Positions 6,078-33,304 of a stretch of 64,000 nt of DNA are shown one piece after another (the first letter of the stretch is position 1; every line of letters begins with the position of its first letter). Under the pieces are notes generated by a model that was given only the letters and a program-made list of their open reading frames with translations, was not told where the DNA came from and did not search any database. Origin of the DNA: Pseudomonadota bacterium (GTDB lineage Bacteria > Pseudomonadota > Gammaproteobacteria > Arenicellales > Poriferihabitantaceae); NCBI GenBank assembly GCA_039029455.1, contig JBCCGE010000007.1, positions 370 to 64,369 of the forward strand, in the 5' to 3' direction. Made by a program: the position numbers and the translations under genes.

Positions 6078-6731
6078 TTAAGATAACACAACGATGGAAC
6101 ACACTCCTTGTGGCGATATTTCCAGGCGGCTAAATCCATTAACTCGGGTTGTAACGAAAAATCCGGTAGGTTCCCCAAAGAGAACAACTCCTGTCTCATC
6201 ACAACACGTCACATTAGCAACATTTGAGTTAAAGAAATTGAAAGAATTTGAATCCCCGATTACGGCGGTCAGATCGATGTCATATGTTCCTGGATCGAAG
6301 GTTGAAGATCCCGTGATTGTGTAGAAACCGGAACTCCCTTGATCTGCACTGCCGAGCTGCTGACCTCCTACAATCAGAGCAACCCGGACTTCCTGAGCGA
6401 ATCCGCTCACGCTAAATGAGACCGGACAAAAAGGTTCGGTCGTTGCTGGCGGGTTTGTCGTACTATCCCCGGGAGGGTTTGTGGTATTTGTTCCTTCACC
6501 AGGCCCCCCTCCTGTGTCCGGGGAGGTAGACGCGTGCGCCGGAATCACCAACGACTCTATCACCGGTTTTTTCCATCCACTGGCGACCAAACCACCCATG
6601 GCCAATCCGCCACTGCCTGCGATCGTTCGTATCAGCTTACGCTTTGCAGAACCCGAAGGATTGTCAAAATCTTTCAATACACCGCGTCTTTTGATACTTG
6701 TATTTTCGTCGGTTTCACGCACTTTTTTCAC
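6078..6731 (-). CDS. Exported protein P1: long basic leader ending in PAHA, Thr/Pro/Gly-rich linker, Cys-containing beta-rich C-terminal domain (unknown family)
   Basis: The preferred start is GTG at 6731, with GAGGGAG 8 nt upstream. The ORF track starts at GTG 6836 (252 aa) with no Shine-Dalgarno sequence, which would add an uncharged hydrophobic N-extension. The leader is ...SAKRKLIRTIAGSGGLAMGGLVASGWKKPVIESLVIPAHA, followed by STSPDTGGGPGEGTNTTNPPGDSTTNPPATTEP. The motif is shared with the gene at 28652..28987. Confidence 0.65.
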   Translation of the reverse strand: MKKVRETDENTSIKRRGVLKDFDNPSGSAKRKLIRTIAGSGGLAMGGLVASGWKKPVIESLVIPAHASTSPDTGGGPGEGTNTTNPPGDSTTNPPATTEPFCPVSFSVSGFAQEVRVALIVGGQQLGSADQGSSGFYTITGSSTFDPGTYDIDLTAVIGDSNSFNFFNSNVANVTCCDETGVVLFGEPTGFFVTTRVNGFSRLEISPQGVCSIVVLS

Positions 6732-7082
6732 AACATTGACTCCCTCGTTAGCCTGAATATGAGTGTAGGTGAAAGTCACAAAAAGTGTCAAGCAACTGGT
6801 TGAAAGGATCAAATTGACGCCGGTCGTAGTCGACACGAGGCGTGTGCTGACGGTCGACGTGCAATGGATAAATCAGTCTGATTACGTTTTCACTCCAGTT
6901 GAAGCAGGTGAGTAGACGGTCCAATACATGGATACTGTAAAAAAGGTGGCCAGGGAAGAACAGATCGGCGGCGACACAGTAAGCACTGATCTTCCAGAGC
7001 GGTCCTTGCGAAAACAGACGATCGCGCTAAATCGTGTAAAACTACGGCTCCTTTCATCGGTAGCGCACCAAGCCCTATGAGA

Positions 7083-8285
7083 TCAGCGTTCTAACACAAA
7101 CAGACGTATCGGATCTCTGACATTTTTAAGTTCAACTTCCCCAACATCAATCCACGGCCTGTCAATCAACGACCGAAACGAACCGGAAACCACCATCGGC
7201 TTTTTCAAATCCCTGCATTTGTCCGTAATCCGGGCAGCCACATTGGCTGCGGACCCCACTACGGTGAAGTTGAGGCGCGTCCGCGTACCGATATTCCCAA
7301 ACATTACGGTACCCACATGCAGACCGATTCCATACCCCACCGGCTCCAGGTTCTTTTGAACACGCTCGCGGTTCATAGTGCCGATGGATTCAGCGGTTTT
7401 CTCAACCGCCTTCATCGCAGCCTGCGCCGCGCTTTCAGGGCTACCAAAACTTTCGAACGAAAATATGGCCATCACTGAATCCCCAATGTAGCTCAGTACC
7501 TCACCCCCCACCGACTCCACAGACCCGGCGGTGGATTCAAAAAACCCATTCAGCAACTCCAGAAAACGATCTCTCCCCAGGGATTCAGCGAGACGGGTGG
7601 ACGACCGCATATCTGAGAACCAGATTACAGCGTCAATATCTTCACCGTCTCCACGCCGCACCTGTCCCGCAAGCACCCGATAACCCGCATCGCGGCCGAT
7701 ATATGCGGTCAGTACATTTTCCGCAAGCTGTTGGTTGACCCACTGTCGGATAGCAACGGCCATGTGGGCCTGAATCCGGCGCACAACATCGCGATGATCC
7801 TCCTGCCATCCACCCGGACAGTCACAGACCCAGGTTGCGATGAATCCGTCCTCGCGCTCCATCGCAGTTGCCTGATCACCAAAAACCGTGACCTTGCCGA
7901 AGTAACCGGTCTCACCACTTGCGTGTAACCTCTCGAACAACGGGTACGGTTGCTCTTCCGCGGTGTCCTGCAGACAGTGATCAAGCTCAAAAACGAGGTT
8001 TTCCACCATATGCCGAAGTGGACTCTGGCGCCACTCGTCACTGTCAATATCCGCGGGTGTATAGGTGTCTTGTTCCAAACCGGATTCACGCGTCCACGTG
8101 ACTGACGTGCCCGAGTAAATCGGATGCAGGAGACGCACCGTAACGTGCAGCCGGGTAAGCGGCAGACCCGCTTCAGTAAGACGCACAGCGGTTTGTTCAG
8201 TAAGTGTTTGCAGCGAAAATTCGCCGAGAGCAAGTGCAAGCAGCCAACGTTCAGTCTGCTCTATCGCGTCCAGGTTGCACATCAA
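7083..8285 (-). CDS. Class III adenylate/guanylate cyclase with N-terminal sensor-like domain of unknown type
   Basis: 400 aa. The C-terminal cyclase homology domain includes VIWFSDMRSSTRLAE, LSYIGDSVMAIF, GIGLHVGTVMFGNIG and NFTVVGSAANVAARI. Confidence 0.85.
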   Translation of the reverse strand: MMCNLDAIEQTERWLLALALGEFSLQTLTEQTAVRLTEAGLPLTRLHVTVRLLHPIYSGTSVTWTRESGLEQDTYTPADIDSDEWRQSPLRHMVENLVFELDHCLQDTAEEQPYPLFERLHASGETGYFGKVTVFGDQATAMEREDGFIATWVCDCPGGWQEDHRDVVRRIQAHMAVAIRQWVNQQLAENVLTAYIGRDAGYRVLAGQVRRGDGEDIDAVIWFSDMRSSTRLAESLGRDRFLELLNGFFESTAGSVESVGGEVLSYIGDSVMAIFSFESFGSPESAAQAAMKAVEKTAESIGTMNRERVQKNLEPVGYGIGLHVGTVMFGNIGTRTRLNFTVVGSAANVAARITDKCRDLKKPMVVSGSFRSLIDRPWIDVGEVELKNVRDPIRLFVLER

Positions 8286-8299: not shown

Positions 8300-9460
8300 C
8301 TAGTCGCTGATCTCCGCACCAATCGCTTCAACGATCATTCGCTGGAAATGATGTACCGCGTGTTCGGAAAGCTCTGTCATACCTTCGTCCACCATGAAAC
8401 GCCCCTGGTTGTAGGCTTTGGAGTTAAGCCCCCTCTGAACACTTTCACATAGAGAAATGTCTTCTGGTTGCAGAACTTCACGTTGGTAGTCCATGGCGTC
8501 TTTGAGTTGCGCCGACGGGGTCTCGGTGGGGATGAACCAATCCTGATATTCAATCGTGCCTTCCGGCCCGTCCGGAATCATCTGCAGGATCGACATATTT
8601 GCCTCCCCGGGATAGATCCAGATCGTTAGATTAGGCCATAGAAACCAACCCGCATAGCCAAAGTCCACGTCGCCTTTCTCAAACTTGAAGGCGTTGTTGT
8701 CTAATGACTTCGGTGCGTCTGAGACCTGAGCCGAATAGATTCCCTTGACCTCCGTTCGATATGAATCCATATCGACCAAATCCACAAAGTCATGATGCGC
8801 CACGTGACAGTGATAGCACTCCAGAAAATTGTCGACCATCACTTTCCAGTTGCAGGGCACTTCATAGGGATCACGCTGGGCGAAAACCAGATCATCAACA
8901 GTCGGACAATAACTTCTGATTTCGCTTTCGAGATTCCCCGACTGAATGTGTAGCGGCTCTGCATCGTCGTTAAGATTGATAAACACCATACCGCAGAACA
9001 CTTCGACCTGAACTCTTTTGAGAGTGAAATCATCCTTTTCAAAGTCCGAGACATTTTCTGAATTACGGGCCGAACGAAGTGCCCCATCAAAGTCATACGC
9101 CCACGCATGGTAGGGGCAGACAACAACGTTTGTTCTGCCGTTACCGGTCAGGAGTTCGTGTCCGCGATGCAGACAGACATTATAAAACGCATTCAATTCC
9201 CCTGATCGACTGCGTATAACAAACACACTCTGATCGTGAATTCGGGTGGTGATGTACTGACCGGGTGACTTCAGCTGACTCACGTGACCCGCATACCACC
9301 AACTCCTGAAAAACACATTGTCTTTTTCAAGATCATAGACCGAGACATCCGTATAGAAGCGCGCCGGCATGGTGTAGGATTTCTTCGGGTCCCGACAAAA
9401 CGGCATGTCACCATTCTGTCTCGCTGTCACTTTTATCGCAGTGCCGACTGCTTTATTCAT
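8300..9460 (-). CDS. Rieske [2Fe-2S] non-heme-iron oxygenase alpha subunit (GbcA / stachydrine demethylase Stc2 / carnitine monooxygenase CntA-like)
   Basis: The Rieske motif is CLHRGHELLTGNGRTNVVVCPYHAWAY (C-x-H-x17-C-x2-H). The mononuclear-iron region is ECYHCHVAHHDF. 386 aa. Confidence 0.85.
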   Translation of the reverse strand: MNKAVGTAIKVTARQNGDMPFCRDPKKSYTMPARFYTDVSVYDLEKDNVFFRSWWYAGHVSQLKSPGQYITTRIHDQSVFVIRSRSGELNAFYNVCLHRGHELLTGNGRTNVVVCPYHAWAYDFDGALRSARNSENVSDFEKDDFTLKRVQVEVFCGMVFINLNDDAEPLHIQSGNLESEIRSYCPTVDDLVFAQRDPYEVPCNWKVMVDNFLECYHCHVAHHDFVDLVDMDSYRTEVKGIYSAQVSDAPKSLDNNAFKFEKGDVDFGYAGWFLWPNLTIWIYPGEANMSILQMIPDGPEGTIEYQDWFIPTETPSAQLKDAMDYQREVLQPEDISLCESVQRGLNSKAYNQGRFMVDEGMTELSEHAVHHFQRMIVEAIGAEISD

Positions 9461-9523: not shown

Positions 9524-10285
9524 TTAGACTGTGAACAACAGGTCGGTTCGTACAATGTATTTGGTACCACTAACGATCGGGGCTGAACTGTGCACACAGT
9601 GCAAAGGATGTGTGCCGTGTGGGAAAAGCAATAATCCGCCTTTGGGCACTCTGATATTCATTACTACGGGTGTATCACCCTGAACAGCGGGCCTGTCAGG
9701 ATTACTCTGACTCACCATAAACTGAGTGTCACCGCCCTCAAAGTCGTCAGATAGAAAGAACAATGCGCTCATTCGACTGAATCGATCACCAAACGCGTCC
9801 GCGCGCAGTTCTCCATCCACGATTCGACTGCCTGGCCACGCTCCATCGGTATGTGGCCTGAAATAATCGCCCTTTTGATAACGATAGAATCGAAAACGAC
9901 AATTCAATCCAACGGGCGGCCTGCCACCAAAGATGTCCGGCAACTGCTGAAGGCAATTCTCAATTCTGGACCACAGTATATCGTGCGTCTGGTCGTCGAT
10001 CACCCAAACGATGTTGTCGTTATGGCGAACCGATCGCGGCAGTGATACAGCAGCATCGGGCAGGTACTCAAGAGTTTCGGACAACTCAATAAAGTTACTG
10101 CACTCATTTTCTTTAAGAACGTCGTTAATCTGACACGCGCCGGGTACCGTCGAGATGTGCTCAAGACTGACTTGATCTGCGGAATCACACAGGTTAAGCG
10201 GATTCGCGGTGTGACATCCCCACGTCGGCAACGCCGAATGCTCAGCACCGGACTCATATGCGGCCACGTAAAACCCGTGCATCAC
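9524..10285 (-). CDS. Prolyl 4-hydroxylase-like (P4Hc-type) 2OG-Fe(II) oxygenase
   Basis: It has HxD in FRPHTDGAW, then FEGGDTQF, then LLLFPHGTHPLHCVHSSAPIVSGTKYIVRTD (distal His plus the K/R that binds 2OG). This pattern is typical of P4H alpha-subunit homologues. Confidence 0.7.
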   Translation of the reverse strand: MMHGFYVAAYESGAEHSALPTWGCHTANPLNLCDSADQVSLEHISTVPGACQINDVLKENECSNFIELSETLEYLPDAAVSLPRSVRHNDNIVWVIDDQTHDILWSRIENCLQQLPDIFGGRPPVGLNCRFRFYRYQKGDYFRPHTDGAWPGSRIVDGELRADAFGDRFSRMSALFFLSDDFEGGDTQFMVSQSNPDRPAVQGDTPVVMNIRVPKGGLLLFPHGTHPLHCVHSSAPIVSGTKYIVRTDLLFTV

Positions 10286-21130: not shown

Positions 21131-22090
21131 CTATTCCCAGTCCCTGAAAACAGGTCCCGTGTACTCTCCATTAATAATGCGCTGACGAGCCGCTTCCCAG
21201 TTCGTTTGCCATACCACCGGATCGCGCAATTCGGATTCCGGATTTGAACGGCTGCGCGCAATAAAACCGGGAAACGCCGGACGACCGCTGGGTTGTCCGG
21301 TCGGATGGTAGCGAATGTCGACACTCCATCTCAGGCGAGCAGATCGATTCGGTGTGGAACTGTGAATATTCTGCTTGTGAAAAAGAATTATGCCGCCCCG
21401 CTTCACCGGCAACGGCTTACCTTGTCTTCCGTCTATTATTTCATCGGGCACGCACGGTTCTCTGGCAATCTTTCCAGGTTGATGCGGCTGCGGGCCCTGC
21501 AGATGGCTCTTGGGAATTGATGCCAGACACCCGTTATCCAGGTCGGCATCGGTGACTGCCACCCAGACCGTCACCTGGTCTGTATTGTCTGCCTCCGGCA
21601 GGACAGCAACAGTATCCTGATGCCAGGTCGTAATGCCGACGTTTGAATGCGCCAGACTGTTGGCATCCAGCTGCTGCTGCGGAGGTTTGATTCGCATTTG
21701 CTGGACCGGACTTGACGAAATCTCGGGACCAATAACGCTCTCTACTATATCCAGGATTTTGGCATTACTCTGCAATCCAAATACCGCCGGTCCAAAGTGC
21801 GCCCGGTACGTATCCGGATCAACGCCATCATTCACCAATGGCAGAGAAATGTTGAATTGGTCCACGCAGTCGGGATACTCCGTCAGCAGCTTTGCATAAC
21901 GCTCAGCAAAAGGAAGTTCGACCAGCGGATCAGATATAAAGCCCCGCTCATAGTACTGTTGGCACTTGTCGTCCAGCAGCTCCTCGTATTCGGTTTCAAG
22001 CGGTTCAATGTCTGCGTCAGCAAGCACGTTCTCCACCACCAGAAATCCGTTTTCGTGGAACGAGTTCAGCTGTTCAGTACTCAATGACAT
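21131..22090 (-). CDS. Phytanoyl-CoA dioxygenase (PhyH) family Fe(II)/2OG oxygenase
   Basis: 319 aa. It has HxD in TTWHQDTVAV and a distal His in FHKQNIHSSTPN. Confidence 0.75.
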   Translation of the reverse strand: MSLSTEQLNSFHENGFLVVENVLADADIEPLETEYEELLDDKCQQYYERGFISDPLVELPFAERYAKLLTEYPDCVDQFNISLPLVNDGVDPDTYRAHFGPAVFGLQSNAKILDIVESVIGPEISSSPVQQMRIKPPQQQLDANSLAHSNVGITTWHQDTVAVLPEADNTDQVTVWVAVTDADLDNGCLASIPKSHLQGPQPHQPGKIAREPCVPDEIIDGRQGKPLPVKRGGIILFHKQNIHSSTPNRSARLRWSVDIRYHPTGQPSGRPAFPGFIARSRSNPESELRDPVVWQTNWEAARQRIINGEYTGPVFRDWE

Positions 22091-23239: not shown

Positions 23240-23794
23240 CTAGTTTGCAACCAGCAAACTATCGAGAAGAGATGTAATACGAGGGTCGTAAGGCGCCACG
23301 GTAGCACCGAATCGGGCCACCACTTCTCCGTTGCGATCAACCACATACTTGAAGAAGTTCCATTTCGGTGCACCTGCCTGTTCGGCGAGCTCCATAAAAA
23401 GTGGATGTGCATCAGGGCCCTTGACCGGCACCGGCGCCATCATCGGAAAACTCACACCAAAATTTAAGAAGCAGATCTTTGCGGCTTCCTGCTCCGTCCC
23501 AGCAGCCTGATGAAACGAATCGGATGTCACGCCGAGGAACCCGACGCCGCGCTTCCCGTACTCCTGATGCAGTGCTTCAAGACCCTCGAACTGATGTGTG
23601 AATCCACAGTGGCTGGCGGTATTCACTACAAGGGCAGGTTTGCCGGCGAGAAGCTCACACAAATGACTACTTTCCGAGCTGTGCAGATGTTTCATCTGAT
23701 GATCAAACACTGCCGGACACAGGTCACTGGCCCAGCCCACTCCGGGAATCAGACAACAAAATAATATCGCCAGATACCCGCGCACTATATCCAC
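23240..23794 (-). CDS. Glutathione peroxidase-family protein with signal peptide
   Basis: NTASHCGFTHQFEGLEALHQEYGKRGVGFLGVTSDSF is the Cys-type GPx active-site context. The N-terminal hydrophobic leader is AILFCCLIPGVGWA. Confidence 0.8.
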   Translation of the reverse strand: MDIVRGYLAILFCCLIPGVGWASDLCPAVFDHQMKHLHSSESSHLCELLAGKPALVVNTASHCGFTHQFEGLEALHQEYGKRGVGFLGVTSDSFHQAAGTEQEAAKICFLNFGVSFPMMAPVPVKGPDAHPLFMELAEQAGAPKWNFFKYVVDRNGEVVARFGATVAPYDPRITSLLDSLLVAN

Positions 23795-25341
23795 TCAGGT
23801 TCAAGTTGGGGCTCGTCACGACCCAGAGATTCCTTTCGTTTTGCGACGTATTCGTTGAGAGCTTCCCTGATCCCCGGATCTGTAGGTGGCGCCTCAAATT
23901 CCTGCAATACGTTTTGCCAGAGCTCTGTGGCACGTTCGGTGGCATTTTTTGACCCGGCCTGCGTCCAGTTCTCATGGTTCTGCCAGTCACTTAGAAACGG
24001 TTCGTAGAACGCACTTTTGTAGCGCTCCATGGTGTGAGCACAACCAAAGAAGTGACCGCCGGGCCCGACCTCTTCCATTGCCTCGAGACCAATCTCACCC
24101 AGATCAATTTTGGGAGGCTGCAGGAATTGACTCATGTGCTGAAGCATTTCGACATCGGTAATTATTTTTTCAAAAGACGCGACCAGTCCGCCTTCGAGCC
24201 ATCCTGCCGTGTGATAGATCAAATTACCGTGACCGAGCACCGACCCCCATAACGACATCTGGGTCTCGTACGTGGATTGAGCGTCAACGGCATTGGAAGC
24301 GTTACAGGCGCTGGTCCGGTGGGGCAATTTATAGAGCCTGGAAAGTTGCCCACCTGCCATATTCGCCAGTGAGTTTTCCGGTGTGCCAAACGCCGGGGAG
24401 CCGGACCGCATATCAACATTGGATGTAAAACCACCATATATCACCGGTGTTCCGGGATTCGTCAGTTGCAACAGTGTGATCCCAAGCAGGGCCTCGGCAT
24501 TAGCCTGCACCAGAGCCCCTCCAAGAGTCGCTGGTGTCATCGCGCCCATCAACGTAAACGGCGTGACGGTTACCGGCTGACCAAGTATGGCGAGTTGCAT
24601 TGCTCCGTAGGCCATACTGTCATCGAGCTTGCGTGGAGAATTAATATTGATGTTCGTCATCACGAGCGGACGGCTCTTCAGATCCTCCAGACTCAGGCCG
24701 TTTGCGATGGCGCCCATATTTGCCGCATCAAGCACACGACCCGCACCGATACCGGTTGCGAAAAAAGGTTTATCCGACAGCGTCAGATTCTCGAAAGTCG
24801 TATCGAGGTGACGGTTATTCACCGGCAGATCTGTGGGCGCAGTTGCCTGATTGCCATAAAACGTCAGGACGTTGAAGTACTGGCCAAACTTGATCAGTTT
24901 TCGATAGTCCTCGATGTTGCCCATCCGACGACCACCAATATTGTCGTGCACATTCGGGGTACCCGACACCAGACCAAAATTGATCACATCGCCGCCGACC
25001 CGGAGTGTGTTGTCCGGGTTGCGGGGAACAACCTCGAACGTTTCCGGCGCCTTTGCAATAGTTTCCATCACCAGATTTCGATCGAGCCGAACGATACCGT
25101 TCGAACTTACATCAGCGCCGGATTTCGAGAACATATCGAGAGCCTGCTGCCCCAGAACTTCCACACCCTGCTCTTCAAGCAGCTGCAGAGAGGTATTATG
25201 TATCAGCTGCACCTGATCTTCGCTAAGAGGCTCAACTGGGGCAAACCGGTTGCGAAGGACGCGACGCTCAATCTGTTTTACCGCAGACTCAACAACCTGT
25301 TCTACTTCAGTATTTTGTCTTCGACGACCTCTGCGAGCCAT
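23785..25341 (-). CDS. MttB-superfamily methyltransferase, non-pyrrolysine type (quaternary amine:corrinoid/THF methyltransferase-like)
   Basis: 518 aa uninterrupted, with no in-frame TAG. The N-terminus MARRGRRRQ...EPLSEDQVQLIHNTSLQLLEEQGVEV...VRLDRNLVMETIAKAPETFEVVPRNP matches the bacterial MttB-family layout as I recall it. Confidence 0.8.
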   Translation of the reverse strand: MARRGRRRQNTEVEQVVESAVKQIERRVLRNRFAPVEPLSEDQVQLIHNTSLQLLEEQGVEVLGQQALDMFSKSGADVSSNGIVRLDRNLVMETIAKAPETFEVVPRNPDNTLRVGGDVINFGLVSGTPNVHDNIGGRRMGNIEDYRKLIKFGQYFNVLTFYGNQATAPTDLPVNNRHLDTTFENLTLSDKPFFATGIGAGRVLDAANMGAIANGLSLEDLKSRPLVMTNININSPRKLDDSMAYGAMQLAILGQPVTVTPFTLMGAMTPATLGGALVQANAEALLGITLLQLTNPGTPVIYGGFTSNVDMRSGSPAFGTPENSLANMAGGQLSRLYKLPHRTSACNASNAVDAQSTYETQMSLWGSVLGHGNLIYHTAGWLEGGLVASFEKIITDVEMLQHMSQFLQPPKIDLGEIGLEAMEEVGPGGHFFGCAHTMERYKSAFYEPFLSDWQNHENWTQAGSKNATERATELWQNVLQEFEAPPTDPGIREALNEYVAKRKESLGRDEPQLEPEWI

Positions 25342-25509: not shown

Positions 25510-26106
25510 TCAGCGTTGGCTTTTGGAAAATACAAACCTGAGAGTGATGCGCTCGCCTTCTTCACCAGCGTATTCGCATCGATTGGCCTCTATGTCATAG
25601 GGCAGCCAGGCAGGAAACAACAGGATATCGCCGGCATCCACATCAATGGCATGCTTGAGGGTATTTGGACCGCTCTTGTCTGTATTGGGCTGTTCGCATT
25701 GCGTTCGAGGATCACTGAATATCGGCCGTCCACTTTTTTCCGGTGCCCGGACGAAATAGAGACCGCGCCACACTCCTCTGTTTGCGTGCATTTCCTTGTC
25801 GTAGCCAAAGCGATCGCAGATATTTGCCCACAAGGCTGAAAGCCAGAGCGGCGTTGCTTGCTCTTCTGCAGTCAGAGAATTCTCAACCTTCTGACGCAAG
25901 GCATCTGCAAACATTGTGAAACCGCTCTCCTCATGGAGTGCATCGTGGCTGTGCCAGCCTCCCTTAGACTGCCTGCTCGGGCTAATGCCTCTGCGCTCTT
26001 GTGTTCTTAGGCTGATCAATCTGGAAGAGAGATAGACGTTGATTAAATCGGCATCCGTAAGTGTCGTTCGGATAACGGGCGTTGGAAACAAATGCAGGCG
26101 TTCCAT
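25510..26106 (-). CDS. TIGR02466 / 2OG-FeII_Oxy_5-like protein (putative 2OG oxygenase fold, metal ligands possibly degenerate)
   Basis: The preferred start is ATG at 26106 (MERLHLFPTPVIRT...); the ORF-track start at 26232 overlaps the upstream gene. The family-like elements are LFPTPV, WANICDRFGYDKEMHAN and ILLFPAWLPYDIEAN. Confidence 0.55.
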   Translation of the reverse strand: MERLHLFPTPVIRTTLTDADLINVYLSSRLISLRTQERRGISPSRQSKGGWHSHDALHEESGFTMFADALRQKVENSLTAEEQATPLWLSALWANICDRFGYDKEMHANRGVWRGLYFVRAPEKSGRPIFSDPRTQCEQPNTDKSGPNTLKHAIDVDAGDILLFPAWLPYDIEANRCEYAGEEGERITLRFVFSKSQR

Positions 26107-26137
26107 CAGCGAAGTACTCGTTTGAATCCTGTCATCT

Positions 26138-27196
26138 TCATGTAAACGTCGGTTGTATTCCGTGGCCGAAATCTGGCGACGGTCCGATTCTCCATGGCGC
26201 AGAGCGCCGAATGTCGCCCCAGTTTTCCTCAATCAAAAGAGGTTGTCGCAAGTCACAACTTGCAACCAGCGAGTCCTTCGGCGTTCCACAGGCCAGGCTG
26301 ACAACCGCGGCTGCGGCGACCGAACCACACCATGGTCCGTCAACGCGCACTCGCATACCGCACTCCATACAGAGATCACGCGCCGTTCGTGCTGGCACCA
26401 GACCACCCAGGAAGGCCGGTTTTATTGCCAGGGAATGCGGCAAATCTGATTCAAGCGCCTGCATGAACGCCGGCAATCCGTCCATACACTGGTCCAGCAT
26501 CACCGCTTTGCCGGTTCGTTCGATGACTTCGAGATTGTCGTCCAATACTTTACACGGCTCTTCCCAGATCAGCCGTGGATCGTCAAATTGAACCACCGTT
26601 TCAATAGCGCGCTCACGTGTCAGTCCACCGTTAAAGTCGGCGAGCACGATTTGCTCTTGACTAGCGTATTTCATCGCGATCTCGATGCGTTCTATGTCAC
26701 TTTTGAGTGAATCCACGCCAAGTTTTAACTGAAATACACGCCATAACCTCGGACTGGTGCTCAACAATGTTTCGAGCTCATCTACAGACATGGCCGTCGG
26801 CCCATAATACTCGTCCAGAATTTCCTGTCTTAATCCCCCAAGCATCTTATAGAGCGGACAGCGCAGTTGTCTTGCAGTTGCGTCCAGCATTGCGGTTTCC
26901 AGTCCGAACGCCAGACCTCTCATCTCAGGCCCCTGTCTGCGAAGGTCGACGACAACTTCCTCAAGAGCATTCTCAGATGCACCTTGCAAAGACGTCACAA
27001 CCTGATCTTCTTTTTGCGGCGCCAGGTCGTTATAAAAGCCCTTTCGAACCACCTCACCCCACCCCATTCGACCATCGGCGAACTCAAGCCGAACAAGACG
27101 AACGGGCAGATCAACCTGCGTAATGTGGGACATGACATACGGTCCGTCCCTGAATTTGTAAACGTAATCGATCAGGCTCAGATGGGTGATTTTCAT
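26138..27196 (-). CDS. Enolase-superfamily enzyme (mandelate racemase / muconate lactonizing enzyme family; epimerase/racemase/cycloisomerase type)
   Basis: 352 aa. The metal-ligand contexts are VLADFNGG, LIWEEPC and VMLDQC. An AAGGA Shine-Dalgarno sequence sits in the 5-nt gap after the upstream glycosyltransferase gene. Confidence 0.8.
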   Translation of the reverse strand: MKITHLSLIDYVYKFRDGPYVMSHITQVDLPVRLVRLEFADGRMGWGEVVRKGFYNDLAPQKEDQVVTSLQGASENALEEVVVDLRRQGPEMRGLAFGLETAMLDATARQLRCPLYKMLGGLRQEILDEYYGPTAMSVDELETLLSTSPRLWRVFQLKLGVDSLKSDIERIEIAMKYASQEQIVLADFNGGLTRERAIETVVQFDDPRLIWEEPCKVLDDNLEVIERTGKAVMLDQCMDGLPAFMQALESDLPHSLAIKPAFLGGLVPARTARDLCMECGMRVRVDGPWCGSVAAAAVVSLACGTPKDSLVASCDLRQPLLIEENWGDIRRSAPWRIGPSPDFGHGIQPTFT

Positions 27197-27201
27197 AGTC
27201 C

Positions 27202-28506
27202 TTATTCGTTCCAGATGCAGGTTTCTCTACGATTTACCCATTCGCCTGACTTAAGACAGGGCCAGGTCACGATGCGTGTCGGTGGCAGCGTAGATTCAAA
27301 TTTCAGGTAAAAAAAATGTTCATCCCGGTCCCAGACCTCTGCATGGGTCTCCTGGGTGATGTCTGTGCGATGAATCAGAAACATATTGTCGGTATGCGCA
27401 GCACAACAAATCATCTCGATATCCGATTTATCCACACCCTCAAAATGGCTGGGATCAAATTTGAATTCAATATTGTGTACCAGCTTCCCGTTATCGTTCA
27501 GCAACGCACGTTTCCGATAAATTATGCCGCTCTTCTGGATAAACTCATCACGGGTTCTGACATCGCCGAGTCCGAATTTGCCCAGTTCCAGAGAGTCATC
27601 GCCTGTACCAAAAAGAGCCCGGCATCGACTCTGTGACGTCAGATCGCGTTCATGCCAGACAGTGCTGTCCTGAATTTCACTGCGTTTATCCTCCTCGTGA
27701 TCACTCCAGTGTTTATGCAGCGTGTACATTCGCATGTACTCGTGCCAGATCACACATTTCGGCGGATGAAATACGTCATAACCATGGGTAAAGGCACGCA
27801 GCGAGATCGTGTTTTCCTCGCCGAGAAAGTAGATCTCCGGATCGTGTGGTACATCGGAAACAAACGATCCGTGCGCAAAACAAAAATGGCCTGAATACAG
27901 CGTTCCGGGCGTTGGCGCGTCCGACGGCTTAATGTGACCGGCTTGATGCATCGGCACGCCGTGATGAGTAAAGGCGCTAACAACCAAGCCATTTCCGTGT
28001 TGTTCCAGTCGCGATGTATCCGCGCATGGCTCCGTATACAAAAAGTTCAGACTGTCTGGATCCGGATCTGTTTCCTGATAGAAGGATTCCGACCCCATGG
28101 GTCGATAGTTATTGACATATGTGGTCAGCATGGGCTTTTTAATACCGTCCCGGACTAGCGTTTCGAAGGTATTAATCAGGTATGTATCCCAACCGCGAGC
28201 AAATCGATGATGAGAATCCAGATGTAGCGTATAAGGTTCACTGTCGTATTGCTGCTGGAGCTGATATCGGGCCCAGCATACGCCTTTGCTTTCCTGCCAC
28301 GGGAATTCCAGTATTTTGAACTGTGCTTTGTCTGATAGTGCATCAAGTTCAGGCTTGACCTGTTCGTACTCCGATGGACTGTGCTGCCATGCAATCGAAA
28401 ACACCAGATTTTCAGGCGCATCCGCTTTAAAAACGCAATCCTTTAAAGTCGAAACCAGCTCTGGGTCACGATACGAGGCAATTTGAACAAAAATCTTCGA
28501 ATTCAC
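27202..28506 (-). CDS. GT60/GT27-like polypeptide glycosyltransferase, paralog a (Pfam 'GlcNAc' / Skp1-HyPro GlcNAc-transferase Gnt1-like)
   Basis: The motifs are IFVQIASYRDPEL, YTLHLDSHHRF (a DxH metal motif like LDSHCE of ppGalNAc-transferases) and GHFCFAHGSFVSDVPHDPEIYFLGEENTISLRAFTHGYDVFHP. The ORF-track start at 28581 would include a terminator hairpin, so the likely start is GTG 28506 or TTG 28515. A C-terminal domain of roughly 130 aa is unassigned. Confidence 0.75.
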   Translation of the reverse strand: MNSKIFVQIASYRDPELVSTLKDCVFKADAPENLVFSIAWQHSPSEYEQVKPELDALSDKAQFKILEFPWQESKGVCWARYQLQQQYDSEPYTLHLDSHHRFARGWDTYLINTFETLVRDGIKKPMLTTYVNNYRPMGSESFYQETDPDPDSLNFLYTEPCADTSRLEQHGNGLVVSAFTHHGVPMHQAGHIKPSDAPTPGTLYSGHFCFAHGSFVSDVPHDPEIYFLGEENTISLRAFTHGYDVFHPPKCVIWHEYMRMYTLHKHWSDHEEDKRSEIQDSTVWHERDLTSQSRCRALFGTGDDSLELGKFGLGDVRTRDEFIQKSGIIYRKRALLNDNGKLVHNIEFKFDPSHFEGVDKSDIEMICCAAHTDNMFLIHRTDITQETHAEVWDRDEHFFYLKFESTLPPTRIVTWPCLKSGEWVNRRETCIWNE

Positions 28507-28518
28507 TTCCTTCAACGC

Positions 28519-28547
28519 ATAAAAAAGCCGACTTACGGAGTCGGCTT
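28519..28547 (-). terminator. Rho-independent terminator downstream of exported-protein gene P2
   Basis: The minus strand reads AAGCCGACT-ccgta-AGTCGGCTT followed by TTTTTTAT. That is a perfect 9-bp GC-rich stem with a 5-nt loop and a T6 run. Confidence 0.85.
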
Positions 28548-28651
28548 GTTTGGTCAATCTCTGTCGTAGAGGCCAGACCACACTGCATCCGTGTAATCCG
28601 TCCTATCACACGGAATCGGCCCAAATTCTACACTTGGTTAATTTGACTTGG

Positions 28652-28987
28652 TTAAGGGGGAGCCGTCGGTGATGGCGATGGGCTCGTCGACATTGAAACA
28701 AGTGGAGCCGACGGACTCGGTGACATCATGGGAGTTTGTGAAACCATAGGCGATGGTGTTGGCGGTGGCTGTGTCGTCCCTCCGCCCGGACCGCCGCCTG
28801 TATCGGTGGTGGCCGCATGTGCAGGCATAACCACAGATCGAACCGTCGGCTTCACCCATTCTTTGTCGAGGGTTTGTGTAATGCCTATGGCACCACTTGC
28901 AGCCAGCAGTTTGCTGATTGCTTTTCGTCTGGATGTCGTTCTATCCAGTTCTTCACGGGACACGGATTTTTTATCATTTGTGCTCAC
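28652..28987 (-). CDS. Exported protein P2: same PAHA leader as P1, followed by a Ser/Thr/Pro-rich tail (or a frameshifted C-terminus)
   Basis: The preferred start is GTG at 28987, with GGAG 6 nt upstream; the ORF-track start is TTG at 28999. The leader ...TSRRKAISKLLAASGAIGITQTLDKEWVKPTVRSVVMPAHA is followed by ATTDTGGGPGGGTTQPPPTPSP.... A second open frame (28638..28859) overlaps the 3' half. Confidence 0.6.
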   Translation of the reverse strand: MSTNDKKSVSREELDRTTSRRKAISKLLAASGAIGITQTLDKEWVKPTVRSVVMPAHAATTDTGGGPGGGTTQPPPTPSPMVSQTPMMSPSPSAPLVSMSTSPSPSPTAPP

Positions 28988-29493
28988 TGTGTTCTCCAAA
29001 TTTTACGCCCATAGAATTCAATGAAATATTAGTGGCGATTGAGGACAAAGTCAATCTGTACCGCAGAAGCCATGTACAATTTCCCTTATTTTTTAATGGC
29101 TTAGCTCGTAAACCAACCCAATCAGAATGCTGGCGAGAAGATTGGATCGTGTCAATCTGCGGTTTAAATTCGTTTAGCGTTATTCAATTCAAAAGAAACC
29201 ATTGGATTTTGTATCGATGGCTTTTTCCCTGCTCTTTCGAAAAAAGGCGCTATGCGCCGGTCAATCCGCAACTGGCATCAGACAACTACGCGTCACCGCC
29301 TCAAAATTCTGATTTTGATCGTAAATACAACATAACTGTGTAAGTATCCATCACCAAAGTTGTGCCTCGCCAGAATCTTCTCTCAGGGTGGTGTTCTCTT
29401 TGCGGAAATTGTCCACCGCTTATCAATAGAAACCTGACAACAACGAACTCATTCGCAGTATAAGAATATTTCGAACACCCCGAATCACTGTCC

Positions 29494-30765
29494 GTGCCCT
29501 CTGATCAATCACGCATACTTCTGCATATCCCGGCCTATCGCGAGCCAGAGTTGATCCCGACAATAGAAGACGCGCTGCAGCAGGCCAAATATCCCGAGCG
29601 CGTTGTCTTCGGGATTTGTCGACAATTCAGCGAAACTGATGGTTTTGACAATCTCGATCGATATCGATCAGACCCTCGCTTCAAGATTATCGATATGCCT
29701 CACACTGAAGCCAGGGGACTCGCATACGCCAGAGCATTGATCAACGACACGCTGCTCGACGATGAAGAATATATTCTCCAGCTGGATTCTCATCATCGCT
29801 TTGCCCATCATTGGGATGACACTCTGATCACCTGGCACCGGGATCTTGAGCGAGATGGATACAACCCAATCCTCACTGGCTATCTGCCCAGCTACAACCC
29901 CAAAAACGACCCGGATGAGCGCGTTCAGGAGCCCTGGATGCAGCGCGTCAACTATTTTTTCAGCCACGGCACTATCTTTATCCAACCGGTCTTGCTAACG
30001 GACTGGGAAAACTGTGATGCTCCAGTGCCGTCTCGTTTTATCTCGGGTCACTTTGCGTTTGCACGGAACGCCTGGGCGAAAACAGTTCGCCACGATCCGG
30101 GAATTTTTTTCTCAGGTGAGGAAATTTCACTAACCGTGCGCTCCTACACCCACGGCTATGATCTTTTTCATCCGCACAGAGTCGTTGTCTGGCATGAAAC
30201 CATGCGTGATTCTCGAGACGGCAAACTCGTATGGGATGACATGGCAAAAACCGACCGCAGCGACCAGTTCTGGCAGAAGGAGTCTGACGCCCGTGCTCGC
30301 ATTCGTCATCTTCTCGGAAGCAGTGATGAGTCGCATGATATGACAGGGTTCGAGTTAGGCACAGTCAGAACACTTGGCGAATACGAGCGTTATGCTGGCA
30401 TACATTTTGCCAGCCGACGGGTTCAGCCAGAAACGTATGATGCAAGGTTTCCACCCAACCCTTTTCAAAGCGATGACCAGTGGACAGAGTCGCTAAAGTA
30501 TATCGGTGCCTGCCATTTCCAGATCACTTCACGAGACTTTCCGTCAAAGGACTACGATTTCATTCTGGTCGCCTTTGACGATGATCAGGGACTCTGTATC
30601 AGACGATTAAACGTATCGGGCGCCCCGTTAAAGTCGTTGATGGAGCAGGGTACCGAGGTTACAGTCAACGAACGCTTCTTATCCGACGTTAGGATTGCCC
30701 GAGTTGTTTGCTGGGGATATAGTGACGCACGCGGCTGGCTTGAACGAACCGAAATCCGTCTCTAA
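29494..30765 (+). CDS. GT60/GT27-like polypeptide glycosyltransferase, paralog b
   Basis: The motifs are ILLHIPAYREPEL, YILQLDSHHRF and GHFAFARNAWAKTVRHDPGIFFSGEEISLTVRSYTHGYDLFHP, colinear with 27202..28506. The start is GTG. 423 aa. Confidence 0.75.
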   Translation: MPSDQSRILLHIPAYREPELIPTIEDALQQAKYPERVVFGICRQFSETDGFDNLDRYRSDPRFKIIDMPHTEARGLAYARALINDTLLDDEEYILQLDSHHRFAHHWDDTLITWHRDLERDGYNPILTGYLPSYNPKNDPDERVQEPWMQRVNYFFSHGTIFIQPVLLTDWENCDAPVPSRFISGHFAFARNAWAKTVRHDPGIFFSGEEISLTVRSYTHGYDLFHPHRVVVWHETMRDSRDGKLVWDDMAKTDRSDQFWQKESDARARIRHLLGSSDESHDMTGFELGTVRTLGEYERYAGIHFASRRVQPETYDARFPPNPFQSDDQWTESLKYIGACHFQITSRDFPSKDYDFILVAFDDDQGLCIRRLNVSGAPLKSLMEQGTEVTVNERFLSDVRIARVVCWGYSDARGWLERTEIRL

Positions 30766-30772
30766 ACACGCG

Positions 30773-32362
30773 ATGACCCAATCAGACGTAACTTATGTAA
30801 CCGGCCTTTGGGACCTGTCACGGCCAGGGCGCGATTTTGGCAGTCACTATCTGCATTACTTCTCCCAGCTGCTTGAACTGGATATCGCGCTGTACATATT
30901 CGCTGACGAGTCCCTCAAGGATTGGGTGTTTGAACGACGCAGTGAAAAAAATACAGTTTTTCATGGTTTTAGCCTCGACGAGATCAAGCACTTTTATCAG
31001 GATCACTGGGATGCCACCCAAAAAATTCGCACGGACTCTGAATGGCAGTCGCAGGCTGAATGGTTGCGACAATCACCCCAGGCAACTTTGGAATTCTACA
31101 ACCCGATTGTGCAGTCGAAACTGCCCTGGTTGAATGACGTCACTTTTTTTGACCCGTTCAAATCAGAGGAGTATTTCTGGATTGATGCCGGAATTACGCA
31201 CACTGTGCGTGCTGACCTTCTGTCAGAGGTGCTCGGGATGCCTCGATCGAATCGATTTATTTTTCTGACCTACCCTCATCACGGCGATTCTGAGATTCAT
31301 GGCTTTGATCGAACGGGGATGAATCAATACTGCAACATGAACTTCGTCGATCGTATCAGTCGCGGTGGTTTCTTTGGCGGGGATAAATTCCACATCAATA
31401 CGCTGAATGGTATCTATCACGAACTTTTAAAAGAAACCCAGGATGCGGGGTACATGGGGACAGAGGAAAGCATCTTCACCATCATGTCCTACCGACATCC
31501 CGAGATCATCAAGACATTTGAGCTGGAAAACGGTCTGTTACAGCCCTATTTCGAAGACCTTCGGTCCCACTCCTTAACTCAGGAAACAATACTGTACATC
31601 CAGACTTACAACACTCCCGAGCAGGTTCGCTGTTTGCTTGAATCGATGAATCAATATGATCCCGACTTGCTCAAACGACCAAAAGTTGTGTTGCTGGACA
31701 ATTCAGACGACCCTGAAGTTGAAGCGGGCTATCAGTCACTTTGTGGGGAATTTCCATTCATAGAGCGCTTAAAGCGCGACAACCCGGGAATTACCGGAGG
31801 TCGGGTGCTGGCTGCCGAGCATTTTGAAACCACCGATGCCGTGCAGTACCTGTATTTCGAAGACGACATGATGCTTTTCGATGGCCACAGTACCGATCGT
31901 CAGGGGTTCCCCCGACGAATCGATGGTCTGTATCAGAAACTCTGCAAAATCATGGAAGCCGAGGGCTTTGATTTTTTGAAATTAAACTTTCAGGAGCTGT
32001 ACGCCATCAACACAACGAATACCGCCTGGTTCAATGTGTCACAGAGGGTGCGCCAGAAAGCGTGGCCAGACACCTCAAGCGGACCGCCATACACGCAGTT
32101 CGATCGCATAAAATCCATGTACGGTCTGGCCTACGCGAGTGGCGACATTTTTTACGCGAACTGGCCTCACATAATGAGCCGATCAGCCAATCGGAGAATA
32201 TTTCTTGACCAGAAAATTCAGCACCCAAGCGAGCACAACGTCATGGCACACTGCTACGAACTATGGATGCAGGGTGACTTGAATGTTGCGGTTTTACTGG
32301 CGTCCCCTATCGAGCACAACCGCATCCATGACTATGATCGAACTGCAAGAAAAGAGTATTAG
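30773..32362 (+). CDS. Two-domain putative glycosyltransferase (N-terminal WlaTC/HtrL-like domain + C-terminal GT-A/GT2-like domain)
   Basis: ATG at 30773 lies 7 nt after the upstream stop; the ORF-track start at 30695 overlaps the upstream gene. The N-domain has YVTGLWDLSR...YFWIDAGITHTV. The C-domain has ILYIQTYNTPEQV..VVLLDNSDDPE..YLYFEDDMMLF (acidic DxD-like motifs). Confidence 0.6.
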   Translation: MTQSDVTYVTGLWDLSRPGRDFGSHYLHYFSQLLELDIALYIFADESLKDWVFERRSEKNTVFHGFSLDEIKHFYQDHWDATQKIRTDSEWQSQAEWLRQSPQATLEFYNPIVQSKLPWLNDVTFFDPFKSEEYFWIDAGITHTVRADLLSEVLGMPRSNRFIFLTYPHHGDSEIHGFDRTGMNQYCNMNFVDRISRGGFFGGDKFHINTLNGIYHELLKETQDAGYMGTEESIFTIMSYRHPEIIKTFELENGLLQPYFEDLRSHSLTQETILYIQTYNTPEQVRCLLESMNQYDPDLLKRPKVVLLDNSDDPEVEAGYQSLCGEFPFIERLKRDNPGITGGRVLAAEHFETTDAVQYLYFEDDMMLFDGHSTDRQGFPRRIDGLYQKLCKIMEAEGFDFLKLNFQELYAINTTNTAWFNVSQRVRQKAWPDTSSGPPYTQFDRIKSMYGLAYASGDIFYANWPHIMSRSANRRIFLDQKIQHPSEHNVMAHCYELWMQGDLNVAVLLASPIEHNRIHDYDRTARKEY

Positions 32363-32365
32363 TGC

Positions 32366-33304
32366 ATGTCTATACTAATTGATATCCGAGCAGACGACTG
32401 GATGACCGAGGAACAACTTGAGAGTTTTTTGCAGCCACTGCTTCCCGGGGTGTCGATGCACTGCCGTGATGCGGGCGAACAAAAAGCCGACGTCACCATG
32501 ATCGCCACCGCGCAACTTCGACCCGGCATCCTCAGCGAATACCCTAACGTACGTCTGATTCAAAAACTCGGAGCTGGTGTCGACGCCATAGTGTCGGATT
32601 CGGACGTCAATAGAAAAAATATCCGCGTCTGTCGGCTTAAACCCGATATGCCCGCACACGAAATTGCTGAATACTGTCTGACCTACGTGCTGCATTTCCA
32701 GCGTCAAGTCGCACACTACGACCAGGCTCAAAAAAACGGTCTCTGGAAGCCCTTACCACCGATGAAAGCCAGTGAGACTACCGTATGCGTGCTGGGTCTT
32801 GGACATATCGGAGCACGAACAGCCGACTACTTTGCACATATGGGGTATCGCGTAATCGGTTGGAGCCGATCGCAAAAACATCTGCCCGATGTCGACTGCC
32901 GCGCAGGGGAAGACGCGTTATCTGATGTTCTCGCTACCGGAGACTACGTTGTTTCAATCCTGCCCTCCACCGAATTAACGAGGAATCTGATCAACAGCGA
33001 AACACTGTCCGGCATGAAGTCATCGGCCGTATTGATCAACGCCGGCCGCGGCGATCTGGTCAATCAGGAAGATCTGCTCGAGGCATTGGATCAGGGAACA
33101 ATCAAAGCCGCTGTTCTCGACGTTTTCCAGCAGGAGCCTGTGCCCGCAGATCATCCGCTCTGGACCCACCCCAATGTCATTATGACACCCCACGTTTCCG
33201 GCTGGCATCTGGACGATGGGCTTGATGTGGTCGCAAAGAATTATCTCGCACTCATTAACAATCAACCTCTCGCCCACGAGGTCGATATACACGCAGGGTA
33301 CTAA
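32366..33304 (+). CDS. D-isomer-specific 2-hydroxyacid dehydrogenase (GhrA/glyoxylate-hydroxypyruvate reductase-like)
   Basis: It has the NAD fold VCVLGLGHIGARTADYF and the catalytic contexts INAGRGDLV and TPHVSG. The start lies 3 nt after the upstream stop. Confidence 0.85.
   Translation: MSILIDIRADDWMTEEQLESFLQPLLPGVSMHCRDAGEQKADVTMIATAQLRPGILSEYPNVRLIQKLGAGVDAIVSDSDVNRKNIRVCRLKPDMPAHEIAEYCLTYVLHFQRQVAHYDQAQKNGLWKPLPPMKASETTVCVLGLGHIGARTADYFAHMGYRVIGWSRSQKHLPDVDCRAGEDALSDVLATGDYVVSILPSTELTRNLINSETLSGMKSSAVLINAGRGDLVNQEDLLEALDQGTIKAAVLDVFQQEPVPADHPLWTHPNVIMTPHVSGWHLDDGLDVVAKNYLALINNQPLAHEVDIHAGY

Follow-up and report, generated by a model that had tools for sequence, protein, structure and literature searches.

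A candidate bacterial mucin-type protein O-glycosylation cassette combining two GT60 paralogs, a two-domain HtrL-like glycosyltransferase and a small Ser/Thr/Pro-rich protein

The window analyzed here is a 64-kb stretch (64,000 nucleotides; positions 370 to 64,369 of contig JBCCGE010000007.1, assembly GCA_039029455.1) from a gammaproteobacterium of the Arenicellales, and its subject is a gene cluster around P2, a small protein rich in Ser, Thr and Pro. Together with two paralogous glycosyltransferases of family GT60 (GT60a and GT60b) and a two-domain glycosyltransferase (HtrL-GT), P2 probably constitutes a cytoplasmic cassette for mucin-type polypeptide O-glycosylation that acts on P2-type proteins, a proposal that draws on sequence and on analogy with characterized relatives. 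The initial annotation of this locus had already proposed a protein O-glycosylation module; the module is real, conserved and P2-centered, but smaller than claimed, because three metabolic enzymes counted in it have to be excluded. The open reading frame (ORF) coordinates, shared motifs and intergenic gaps given there were all reproduced from the ORF map and the sequence. The members of the cassette are as follows.

27202-28506, minus strand: GT60a (ORF map; PF11397)
28652-28987, minus strand: P2, the likelier extent of an ORF claimed as 28652-28999 (GTG start at 28987 with GGAG 6 nt upstream)
29494-30765, plus strand: GT60b (ORF map; PF11397)
30773-32362, plus strand: HtrL-GT, the two-domain glycosyltransferase (ORF map; PF09612)

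The glycosyltransferases of the cassette

In eukaryotes, mucin-type and Skp1-type O-glycosylation are initiated by enzymes of GT60 and GT27, the former including Dictyostelium Gnt1, which adds N-acetylglucosamine (GlcNAc) onto the hydroxyproline (Hyp) of Skp1, and the trypanosomatid mucin Thr α-GlcNAc transferases. Both families have in common a DxH metal-binding motif that replaces DxD, and a survey notes that GT60 occurs in prokaryotes and protists, with nothing more on the prokaryotic side (PMC7185993). In the literature searched, no account of what a bacterial GT60 enzyme does was found, in line with the earlier view that such a system in a free-living proteobacterium would be undescribed.

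Profile, motif and fold concur in placing both paralogs in GT60, as had been proposed. GT60a matches PF11397 with 185.5 bits (2.5e-54) and GT60b with 182.7 bits (1.8e-53), the cut-off being 21. Aligned from end to end, the two proteins show 34% identity and share the motifs IFVQIASYRDPEL/ILLHIPAYREPEL, Y(T/I)L(H/Q)LDSHHRF, which holds the DxH motif (LDSHHRF) in each, and GHFxFA…HDPxI(Y/F)F(L/S)GEE…THGYD(V/L)FHP. In an alignment of 117 sequences, both paralogs included, D97 and H99 (the DxH residues), H207, D222, E231 and H255 are invariant, and R380, F403, P409, W415 and W423 in the C-terminal region are invariant or nearly so; GT60b keeps all family-invariant residues. The AlphaFold2 model of GT60a (predicted local distance difference test, pLDDT, 93.9; predicted TM-score 0.92) consists of a GT-A domain followed by a β-sandwich, the latter with pLDDT of about 90 or more. 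When this model was compared with the PDB by Foldseek, GT-A transferases were retrieved, with the top TM-scores (0.43-0.46, at 10-13% identity) for GalNAc-T1 and GalNAc-T7, and a sequence-profile search of the PDB with GT60 returned no solved relative.

The C-terminal domain had been described as divergent and unassigned. It does lie outside the Pfam model, over some 100-110 aa, but it is conserved across the family rather than specific to this locus. Among 5.8 billion proteins, 3955 relatives of GT60a were found, and since most of them (about 416 aa long) cover 98-99% of the query, the C-terminal region is a conserved element of a subfamily present in bacteria and phages. Within this subfamily, GT60a carries an insertion common to a phage-rich subclade, and GT60b belongs to the mainstream bacterial clade. 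Membership of GT27 is not borne out: PF00535 is matched only by GT60b and below its cut-off (20.1 versus 23.3 bits), and the ricin-type lectin domain and N-terminal signal anchor of GT27 enzymes are absent from both paralogs. Because neither contains a signal peptide or a transmembrane or other hydrophobic segment, both are soluble and presumably cytoplasmic.

HtrL-GT is best read, from its predicted structure, as a bifunctional transferase with an HtrL/WlaTC-like N-terminal domain and a GT-A-like C-terminal domain. The N-terminal half matches PF09612 (HtrL_YibB) with 57.3 bits against a cut-off of 24.1, but scores only 50 against the 264.9 of the YibB equivalog model; the NCBI product for the HtrL-GT start, P0160, is a 529-aa protein named 'WlaTC/HtrL family glycosyltransferase'. 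The AlphaFold2 model (pLDDT 90.4) shows two domains, both GT-A-like, and in Foldseek it aligns over its full length with enzymes that contain two GT-A domains, namely the chondroitin polymerase K4CP, LH3 and heparosan synthase 2. A PDB sequence search with HtrL-GT gave no match.

P2 and the Ser/Thr/Pro-rich neighbors of GT60 genes

P2 is a protein of 111 aa when translated from GTG 28987, with a leader of about 58 residues that ends in PAHA and a 53-aa core that contains 19 Ser/Thr and 15 Pro. That the GT60 enzymes act on this adjacent protein, as had been suggested, receives strong independent support from other phyla, where GT60 genes likewise lie next to genes for Ser/Thr/Pro-rich (STP-rich) proteins. 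In a scan with one genome per species, GT60 relatives are encoded in 306 genomes, from which 80 loci were compared, including those of Sphingomonas, Verrucomicrobium, Azospirillum, Cupriavidus, Burkholderia, Ralstonia, Gemmatimonadota and Acidobacteriota. The density of STP-rich ORFs, analyzed over 87 loci, is highest within 300 bp of GT60, at 3.67 per 10 kb (18 ORFs), and falls in successive outer bins to 0.48, 0.41, 0.33, 0.10 (5-7.5 kb) and 0.0 (7.5-10 kb), about 35 times higher next to GT60 than 5-10 kb away. At least 16 loci have an STP-rich gene on the GT60 strand that terminates just upstream of GT60. The STP-rich partners include small peptides as well as large proteins that contain PT linkers. 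Such crowding is the pattern expected if the neighbor is the acceptor, and it is the main support for a role in glycosylation.

The same arrangement is found with the leader of P2. A leader followed by an STP tail directly precedes GT60 or HtrL-GT in Rhodobiaceae (L055), Tepidamorphus (L026), an alphaproteobacterial metagenome-assembled genome (MAG; L029), a deltaproteobacterial MAG (L023), Vicinamibacterales (L046), Halieaceae (L058), Wenzhouxiangella (L074) and two soil metagenome contigs (L086, L087), and thus spans Alphaproteobacteria, Deltaproteobacteria, Acidobacteriota, Gammaproteobacteria and soil metagenomes. An HtrL/GT-A gene, sometimes split in two and sometimes fused to other domains, adjoins GT60 in 27 of the 80 genome loci, and two full-length GT60 paralogs are present in 21 other loci. 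The closest counterpart is a 7.3-kb sister metagenome contig (L093), in which a GT60b-like gene (55.8% identity) faces an orthologue of P2 (36% identity, E 8e-10) with the leader, DAGGGDG and then SPMASVMPSP repeats, after which come a GT60a-like gene and HtrL-GT, with 42.5% and 48% identity, respectively. The enolase-superfamily, oxygenase and dehydrogenase genes that flank the cassette in the window are absent from this contig; because the set is repeated without them, the conserved unit is P2, two GT60 genes and HtrL-GT.

The neighborhood also bears on the possibility that these enzymes build a non-protein glycan, such as lipooligosaccharide (LOS), capsule, a teichoic-like polymer or a small-molecule glycoside, and that the adjacency of P2 is incidental. 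Loci for the lipopolysaccharide/LOS core contain HtrL-family genes, TarS, TarP, GlfT2 and polysaccharide synthases are among the Foldseek matches too, nucleotide-sugar and glycosyltransferase genes surround the phage homologues, and many homologues are labeled 'glycosyltransferase involved in cell wall biosynthesis' by the Joint Genome Institute, although these names are automatic annotations. Set against the roughly 35-fold STP-rich enrichment directly upstream of GT60 across phyla, and given no flippase, polymerase, ABC polysaccharide exporter or nucleotide-sugar gene among the Pfam-scanned neighbors in the window, a non-protein product is regarded as unlikely.

STP-rich segments were also seen somewhat further from GT60. 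In Paraburkholderia, Burkholderia, Achromobacter and Ralstonia (L067, L068, L072, L075, L082), a gene for VgrG of type VI secretion with a Pro/Thr/Ser-rich stretch is located about 5 kb downstream of GT60; another example of such a stretch is the PSETPPP repeats in L079 (15295-15702). These are hints that VgrG linkers might be glycosylated.

The extended leader and its partners

The leader of P2 (74.7 bits to a leader hidden Markov model, HMM) recurs in a second protein of the window, P1 (71.9 bits). In both, R-R/K-R is followed by a weakly hydrophobic stretch and W-x-K-P-x-(V/I)-x-S-(V/L)-V-x-P-A-H-A, then by (S/T)-x-D-T-G-G-G-P-G and an STP-rich stretch; in P1 the latter is STSPDTGGGPGEGTNTTNPPGDSTTNPPATTEP, and a C-terminal domain of about 130 aa comes after it. 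The Gly-rich motif behind AHA, (T/S)xDTGGGPG, lies at 28784-28804 (minus strand) in P2 and at 6498-6518 (minus strand) in P1. It has a variant, TTDDTGSGGPG, in P0401, another leader protein, whose 2.6-kb contig offers no informative gene context, and the related DAGGGDG stands a few residues past the AHA site in the P2 orthologue of L093 (2975-3466). P1 and the gene that it directly precedes are listed below.

6078-6836, minus strand: P1 (leader match; the true start is probably downstream of 6836)
3042-5906, minus strand: fusion of TPR, GT41 (OGT-like) and methyltransferase domains (PF13844, TPR, Methyltransf_24)

The fusion protein is 954 aa long, with 177.5 bits to PF13844, TPR repeats and a Methyltransf_24 domain, and represents a second candidate protein glycosyltransferase, so that P1 may be served by an enzyme other than that of P2. 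GT41-like genes also adjoin leader or STP genes in L058 and L084.

An exhaustive profile search places the leader family in 4965 of 1.84 billion cluster representatives, 2289 of them at E ≤ 1e-10. Most are proteins of 150-220 aa in which the leader occupies residues 1-53, with the consensus SRRKLLK…LP..W.(K/R)PVV.SV.LPAHAQTS. Near-identical copies are carried by differing passengers, among which are Peptidase_S74, Hint and Ig-like domains, and such variety under nearly the same leader suggests a dedicated sorting system. The N-terminal part of a canonical member, P0133, matches the twin-arginine translocation (Tat) model TIGR01409 (17.7 versus 16.7), and no model in Pfam or NCBIfam covers the conserved extension of about 20 residues, which is not part of known Tat signals. 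From these sequence features, the leader is read as an extended Tat-type export or sorting signal and not as the leader of a ribosomally synthesized peptide with post-translational modifications (RiPP).

In related loci the leader genes have regular companions. A PqqD-family domain is encoded in all 11 non-window leader loci near GT60 (8 of 8 genome loci, together with L086, L087 and L093), in most of them along with an HprK-like kinase, and a gene resembling HprK-related kinases accompanies PqqD in 16 loci; the PqqD-family chaperone scores 52.6 bits in Pfam, and the kinase-like gene 96.6 bits to TIGR04352, whose cut-off is 200. The PqqD domain is even fused N-terminally to the leader-STP protein in L076 (8438-9232), L077 (9224-9964) and L059 (7270-7758), and to a GT25 domain in L093 (6587-7327, minus strand). 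GT60 ORFs of L040 and L069 show weaker PqqD-like matches at their C-terminal end. A reasonable reading is that, while modification proceeds in the cytoplasm, the leader is held by a peptide chaperone. A literature search on ScmC found nothing relevant.

These partners, the ABC exporter additionally encoded in L097, the GT25-PqqD fusion and the hairpin that follows the precursor gene in the window would all suit a RiPP-like system, in which P2 is a precursor, its leader is bound by a recognition protein, and the glycosylated core is released as a glycocin-like bioactive glycopeptide. However, no PqqD, kinase, protease or ABC exporter gene occurs near the window cluster, the cores are mucin-like and of low complexity, and the leader heads thousands of secreted proteins of ordinary size, as befits a sorting signal. 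A RiPP-like product is accordingly thought improbable, and a RiPP-specific leader was rejected on the outcome of the exhaustive search.

Serine/threonine or hydroxyproline as the possible acceptor

Ser/Thr is taken as the default acceptor, with Hyp as a live alternative. The latter is prompted by Arenicella sp. (L098), which possesses what looks like a bacterial hydroxyproline-glycosylation gene set: a 1203-aa fusion (4593-8204, minus strand) combines HPAT-like (38.6 bits), GT60 (158.8 bits) and P4H-type 2OG-FeII_Oxy_3 (61.7 bits) domains, and beside it are another GT60 gene, the leader peptide P0157 and an ORF encoding (PTSA)n, with features at 1356-2498 (minus strand) and 3811-4582 (plus strand). 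This arrangement mirrors the PhyA-Gnt1 logic of Skp1 modification. On account of the HPAT-GT60-P4H fusion, some members of the system very probably glycosylate Hyp. Sulfotransferase, MBOAT and O-FucT-like genes are present in the same locus.

For the window itself, a Skp1-like route would require that a P4H-type hydroxylase modify prolines of P2 or P1, that GT60 add α-GlcNAc to Hyp, and that the bifunctional enzyme extend it. The leader family shared with L098 and the 15 prolines in the 53-residue core of P2 are compatible with this, and the window does contain a P4H-like gene (9524-10285, minus strand) with a visible HxD…H motif. But this gene is below the Pfam cut-off (PF13640, 24.5 versus 27 bits) and about 17 kb from the GT60 genes; it lies some 3 kb upstream of P1, with unrelated genes in between (a Rieske oxygenase gene and an adenylate-cyclase-domain gene), and a P4H domain was found in only 2 of about 90 loci. 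The oxygenase-fold gene inside the cluster, which is TIGR02466-like, was considered as the hydroxylase of a Hyp-type pathway and rejected: two of the three conserved metal-ligand positions are substituted, which excludes it in canonical form and makes an active hydroxylase unlikely. A Hyp-type pathway is regarded as unlikely in this particular locus.

Proposed pathway and the evidence against it

With mucin-type glycosylation of P2 as the favored reading, acceptor, donor sugar, order of action, export and biological role may be conceived as follows. P2 would be translated with its extended twin-arginine-type leader of about 58 residues and its 53-residue Ser/Thr/Pro-rich core. The soluble GT60 enzymes, presumably retaining GT-A transferases with a DxH metal site, would then attach the first N-acetylhexosamine (HexNAc) to Ser/Thr, or possibly Hyp, of the core, using UDP-GlcNAc by analogy with characterized GT60 members; a division of labor between the two paralogs is probable, either by site or with priming set apart from follow-up transfer. 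The bifunctional HtrL/GT-A enzyme would add up to two further sugars, after which the glycosylated, unstructured product would be exported through the Tat-type signal and cleaved after A-H-A, so that a small glycopeptide or glycoprotein of mucin-like character would end up in the envelope or the medium. The hairpin after P2 could serve to keep acceptor transcripts in excess of enzyme transcripts. Peptide sequences that are candidate acceptors for the GT60 enzymes are TTDTGGGPGGGTTQPPPTPSP, SPMVSQTPMMSPSPSAP and STSPDTGGGPGEGTNTTNPPG.

Several observations weigh against this proposal. Carrying this leader does not mark a protein as a glycosylation substrate: thousands of diverse proteins begin with it, and among the top matches STP-rich sequence directly after AHA is limited to about 11%. 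The leaders of P2 (SRRKAISKLL…PAHA) and P1 (AKRKLIRTI…PAHA) themselves give no match to the Tat model TIGR01409. Relaxed HMM searches found no PqqD-like (best E 2.2) or HprK-like gene in the 64-kb window, and this is the main unexplained difference from the related loci; because both genes are missing, the window cassette may work differently, rely on genes elsewhere or be a remnant. The closest homologues of GT60a, on phage contigs, adjoin DNA-replication genes, and no obvious STP-rich partner was found within 10 kb of them; not every member of the family need be a polypeptide transferase. With spacings of only 3 and 5 nt, the dehydrogenase and enolase-superfamily genes are likely to be transcribed together with the cassette outside which they are placed; insertion of the cassette into a catabolic operon can explain this, but base composition marks no clear island. 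Finally, the evidence for the mechanism consists of synteny and family analogy.

A broader scheme can be put forward only tentatively. There may be a widespread, so far undescribed bacterial pathway that assembles mucin-like or Hyp-linked O-glycans on proteins with extended Tat leaders. Its transferases would be soluble GT60 enzymes working in the cytoplasm together with HtrL/GT-A, GT41 or HPAT/P4H partners, and a PqqD-type chaperone and an HprK-like kinase would hold the leader until the work is done, much as Tat proofreading chaperones do. Eukaryotic GT60/GT27 mucin-type glycosylation, as well as Skp1- or plant-type hydroxyproline glycosylation, would then have its prokaryotic root in this pathway, which would also be common to marine and crAss-like phages.

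Comparison with known systems

The enzyme set, leader and partners differ from those of the protist GT60, GalNAc-T and serine-rich repeat systems, although the logic is similar. With the GT60 enzymes of protists (Gnt1 of Dictyostelium and Toxoplasma, and the trypanosomatid mucin enzymes), the window paralogs have in common the Pfam family, the LDSHH DxH motif and the GT-A fold, and Gnt1 is soluble and cytoplasmic, as is predicted for them. In the Skp1 pathway, Gnt1 is followed by the bifunctional two-domain PgtA, as HtrL-GT would follow GT60 here; the likeness is one of architecture, and the extending enzyme here is of the HtrL/GT-A type. The differences are that the window enzymes are bacterial and carry an extra conserved C-terminal β-sandwich of about 100 aa, that the hydroxylase partner is absent or degenerate, and that a small STP-rich protein, predicted to be exported and headed by a Tat-type leader, takes the place of Skp1 or a Golgi mucin as candidate acceptor. 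GT27 enzymes (GalNAc-T1, T2 and T7) resemble the paralogs in the DxH motif, in a catalytic domain combined with an accessory C-terminal domain, in giving the best TM-scores, and in existing as paralogous isoenzymes that act on STP-rich acceptors (here a candidate acceptor), but they have a PF00535 match above threshold, a lectin domain and a signal anchor that the paralogs lack, and identity in the structural alignments is low.

In Gram-positive bacteria, serine-rich repeat adhesins receive GlcNAc in the cytoplasm from GtfA/GtfB, are extended by the bifunctional dGT1 and leave through the accessory Sec system. Soluble transferases, a Ser/Thr-rich substrate, a multi-domain extender and dedicated export follow the same logic as that proposed for the cassette. 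In contrast to the GT4/GT-B and DUF1792 enzymes and SecA2/Y2 of that system, the window has GT60 and HtrL, a putative Tat-type signal and a small candidate substrate, and its relatives are in Gram-negative bacteria and diverse other phyla. The HPr-rel-A/SynChlorMet-type cassettes (NCBIfam/TIGRFAMs) resemble the related loci, which carry an HprK-related-kinase-like gene and a PqqD chaperone beside the leader gene; however, the kinase score is below the equivalog cut-off, those cassettes are not described with GT60 or HtrL, and the window lacks both genes.

If the proposal is correct, it would add a new general route of bacterial protein O-glycosylation, cytoplasmic, independent of a lipid carrier and coupled to a Tat-type leader, and the long-discussed prokaryotic origin of eukaryotic polypeptide HexNAc transferases would become directly testable. 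Compact cassettes of three or four genes could serve for making mucin-like glycopeptides in bacteria. The leader family, which has about 5000 cluster representatives but no name, deserves study together with its PqqD/kinase partners, and the phage homologues open a possible route to the glycosylation of phage virions or host proteins.

Co-located genes and transcription signals

The cassette is flanked on both strands by metabolic genes, and the region around P2 contains two candidate transcription signals.

25510-26106, minus strand: TIGR02466-like gene (ORF map)
26138-27196, minus strand: enolase-superfamily gene (ORF map)
32366-33304, plus strand: GhrA-like D-2-hydroxyacid dehydrogenase gene (ORF map; 2-Hacid_dh_C)
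28525-28547, minus strand: terminator- or attenuator-like hairpin (9-bp stem with 5 GC pairs, then TTTTAT)
29026-29054, minus strand: sigma-70-like promoter candidate upstream of P2 (TTGACT-17-TAATAT)

The gaps between genes are exact: 5 nt between GT60a and the enolase-superfamily gene, 31 nt from there to the TIGR02466-like gene, 7 nt between GT60b and HtrL-GT, and 3 nt between HtrL-GT and the GhrA-like gene. A long TTG-initiated ORF reaching 26232 would make the TIGR02466-like gene overlap the gene upstream, and it is the ATG at 26106 that gives the 31-nt gap. The terminator placed between P2 and GT60a in the initial annotation was recovered as a hairpin with a T-run between the stop codon of P2 and the ribosome-binding site of GT60a. 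The promoter candidate is a consensus match only, such sites being no more numerous in the region than in shuffled sequence. The GC content of the core is 0.49, compared with 0.53-0.56 in the flanks, and GC content at third codon positions is similar; a recently acquired horizontal island was rejected because this signal is too weak.

All six enzymes had been joined in one module, but among 84 loci (the 80 genome loci and four phage-like contigs, L001-L004), in which the proteins of the window cluster were compared with all ORFs, the enolase-superfamily protein has a counterpart in none, the TIGR02466-like protein in none, and the GhrA-like protein in 2, both weak. The other possibility raised at the time, that the enolase-superfamily and oxygenase genes come from betaine catabolism, is the better reading, supported by this absence, by the genes downstream and by relatives in the PDB. 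The enolase-superfamily protein contains MR_MLE_N and MR_MLE_C domains (69.1 and 33.2 bits); its best equivalog is cis-3-hydroxy-L-proline dehydratase, with a score of 106 versus 500, and its closest solved relatives are 4mgg (1.2e-23), 2pmq/4h2h and 4e8g/4izg, a group that we take to comprise cis-3-hydroxy-L-proline dehydratase together with epimerases of hydroxyproline betaine or proline betaine. Genes for an MttB-family methyltransferase (23785-25341), a PhyH dioxygenase and an OYE-type flavoenzyme follow downstream on that strand, and on the other side of the cluster genes for an aminotransferase, an Amdase-type racemase or decarboxylase and hydantoinase A/B. The dehydrogenase has a 2-Hacid_dh_C domain (180.8 bits) and, with 175.5 versus the 403 of the GhrA equivalog, is to be classed as a D-2-hydroxyacid dehydrogenase of generic type. 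All three genes (enolase-superfamily, TIGR02466-like and GhrA-like) probably belong to the surrounding catabolism of betaine and proline derivatives, outside the cassette.

The TIGR02466-like protein keeps its family and fold assignment (69.5 bits versus 62.5 for TIGR02466, with a match to PF13759), but not the metal site implied by the description '2OG-oxygenase-like': the HxH…H of three cyanophage homologues reads M-H-A-N … Y, with two of the three ligands lost. On this sequence it may be a degenerate or repurposed member. The family is common in cyanophages, 33 phage records having been matched.

It could still be argued that all six enzymes serve one pathway, with the enolase-superfamily, TIGR02466-like and dehydrogenase proteins making or tailoring an unusual acidic substituent or sugar on the glycan of P2. 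Co-transcription is implied by gaps of no more than 5, 31 and 3 nt, and fusions to methyltransferases and other tailoring enzymes are seen in many HtrL-GT homologues. The counts of 0/84, 0/84 and 2/84 beside GT60 or HtrL-GT, the lack of these genes in L093, the resemblance of the enolase-superfamily protein, encoded upstream of MttB, to enzymes of proline derivatives, and the lost metal ligands make this very unlikely.

The window as a whole is rich in osmolyte- and betaine-type catabolic genes. Genes for PhyH-family dioxygenases were noted at 1909-2736 (plus strand) and 21131-22090 (minus strand), and a Rieske oxygenase gene at 8300-9460.

Phage relatives

The closest homologues of GT60a (44-46% identity, with its insertion kept) are on marine phage-like contigs (L001-L004 and L095), and the family is also encoded by the cultured jumbo phages Xoo-sp13, XacN1, CM1 and RAS14. 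On these contigs the GT60 gene (10001-11269 in L001) lies between a dUTPase/dCTP-deaminase gene and genes for DNA polymerase B, RecA, DnaB, ThyX and ribonucleotide reductase, and GT2, GT47-like and sugar epimerase genes are found upstream of GT60 on the phage contigs. DNA glycosylation, considered because phage homologues stand beside DNA polymerase and dUTPase genes, was rejected, as nothing in the window supports it. The closest homologues of HtrL-GT (52-56% identity) belong to crAss-like phage contigs (L088, 10001-11659; L089, 10001-11602), where ring and muzzle structural genes surround them and a carbamoyltransferase gene adjoins them, as does, in L089, a TylF-type methyltransferase gene. 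On these sequence relationships, gene exchange between phages and marine bacteria is likely. The crAss-like contigs also encode a neighboring protein of about 1950 aa with a long Ser-rich stretch.

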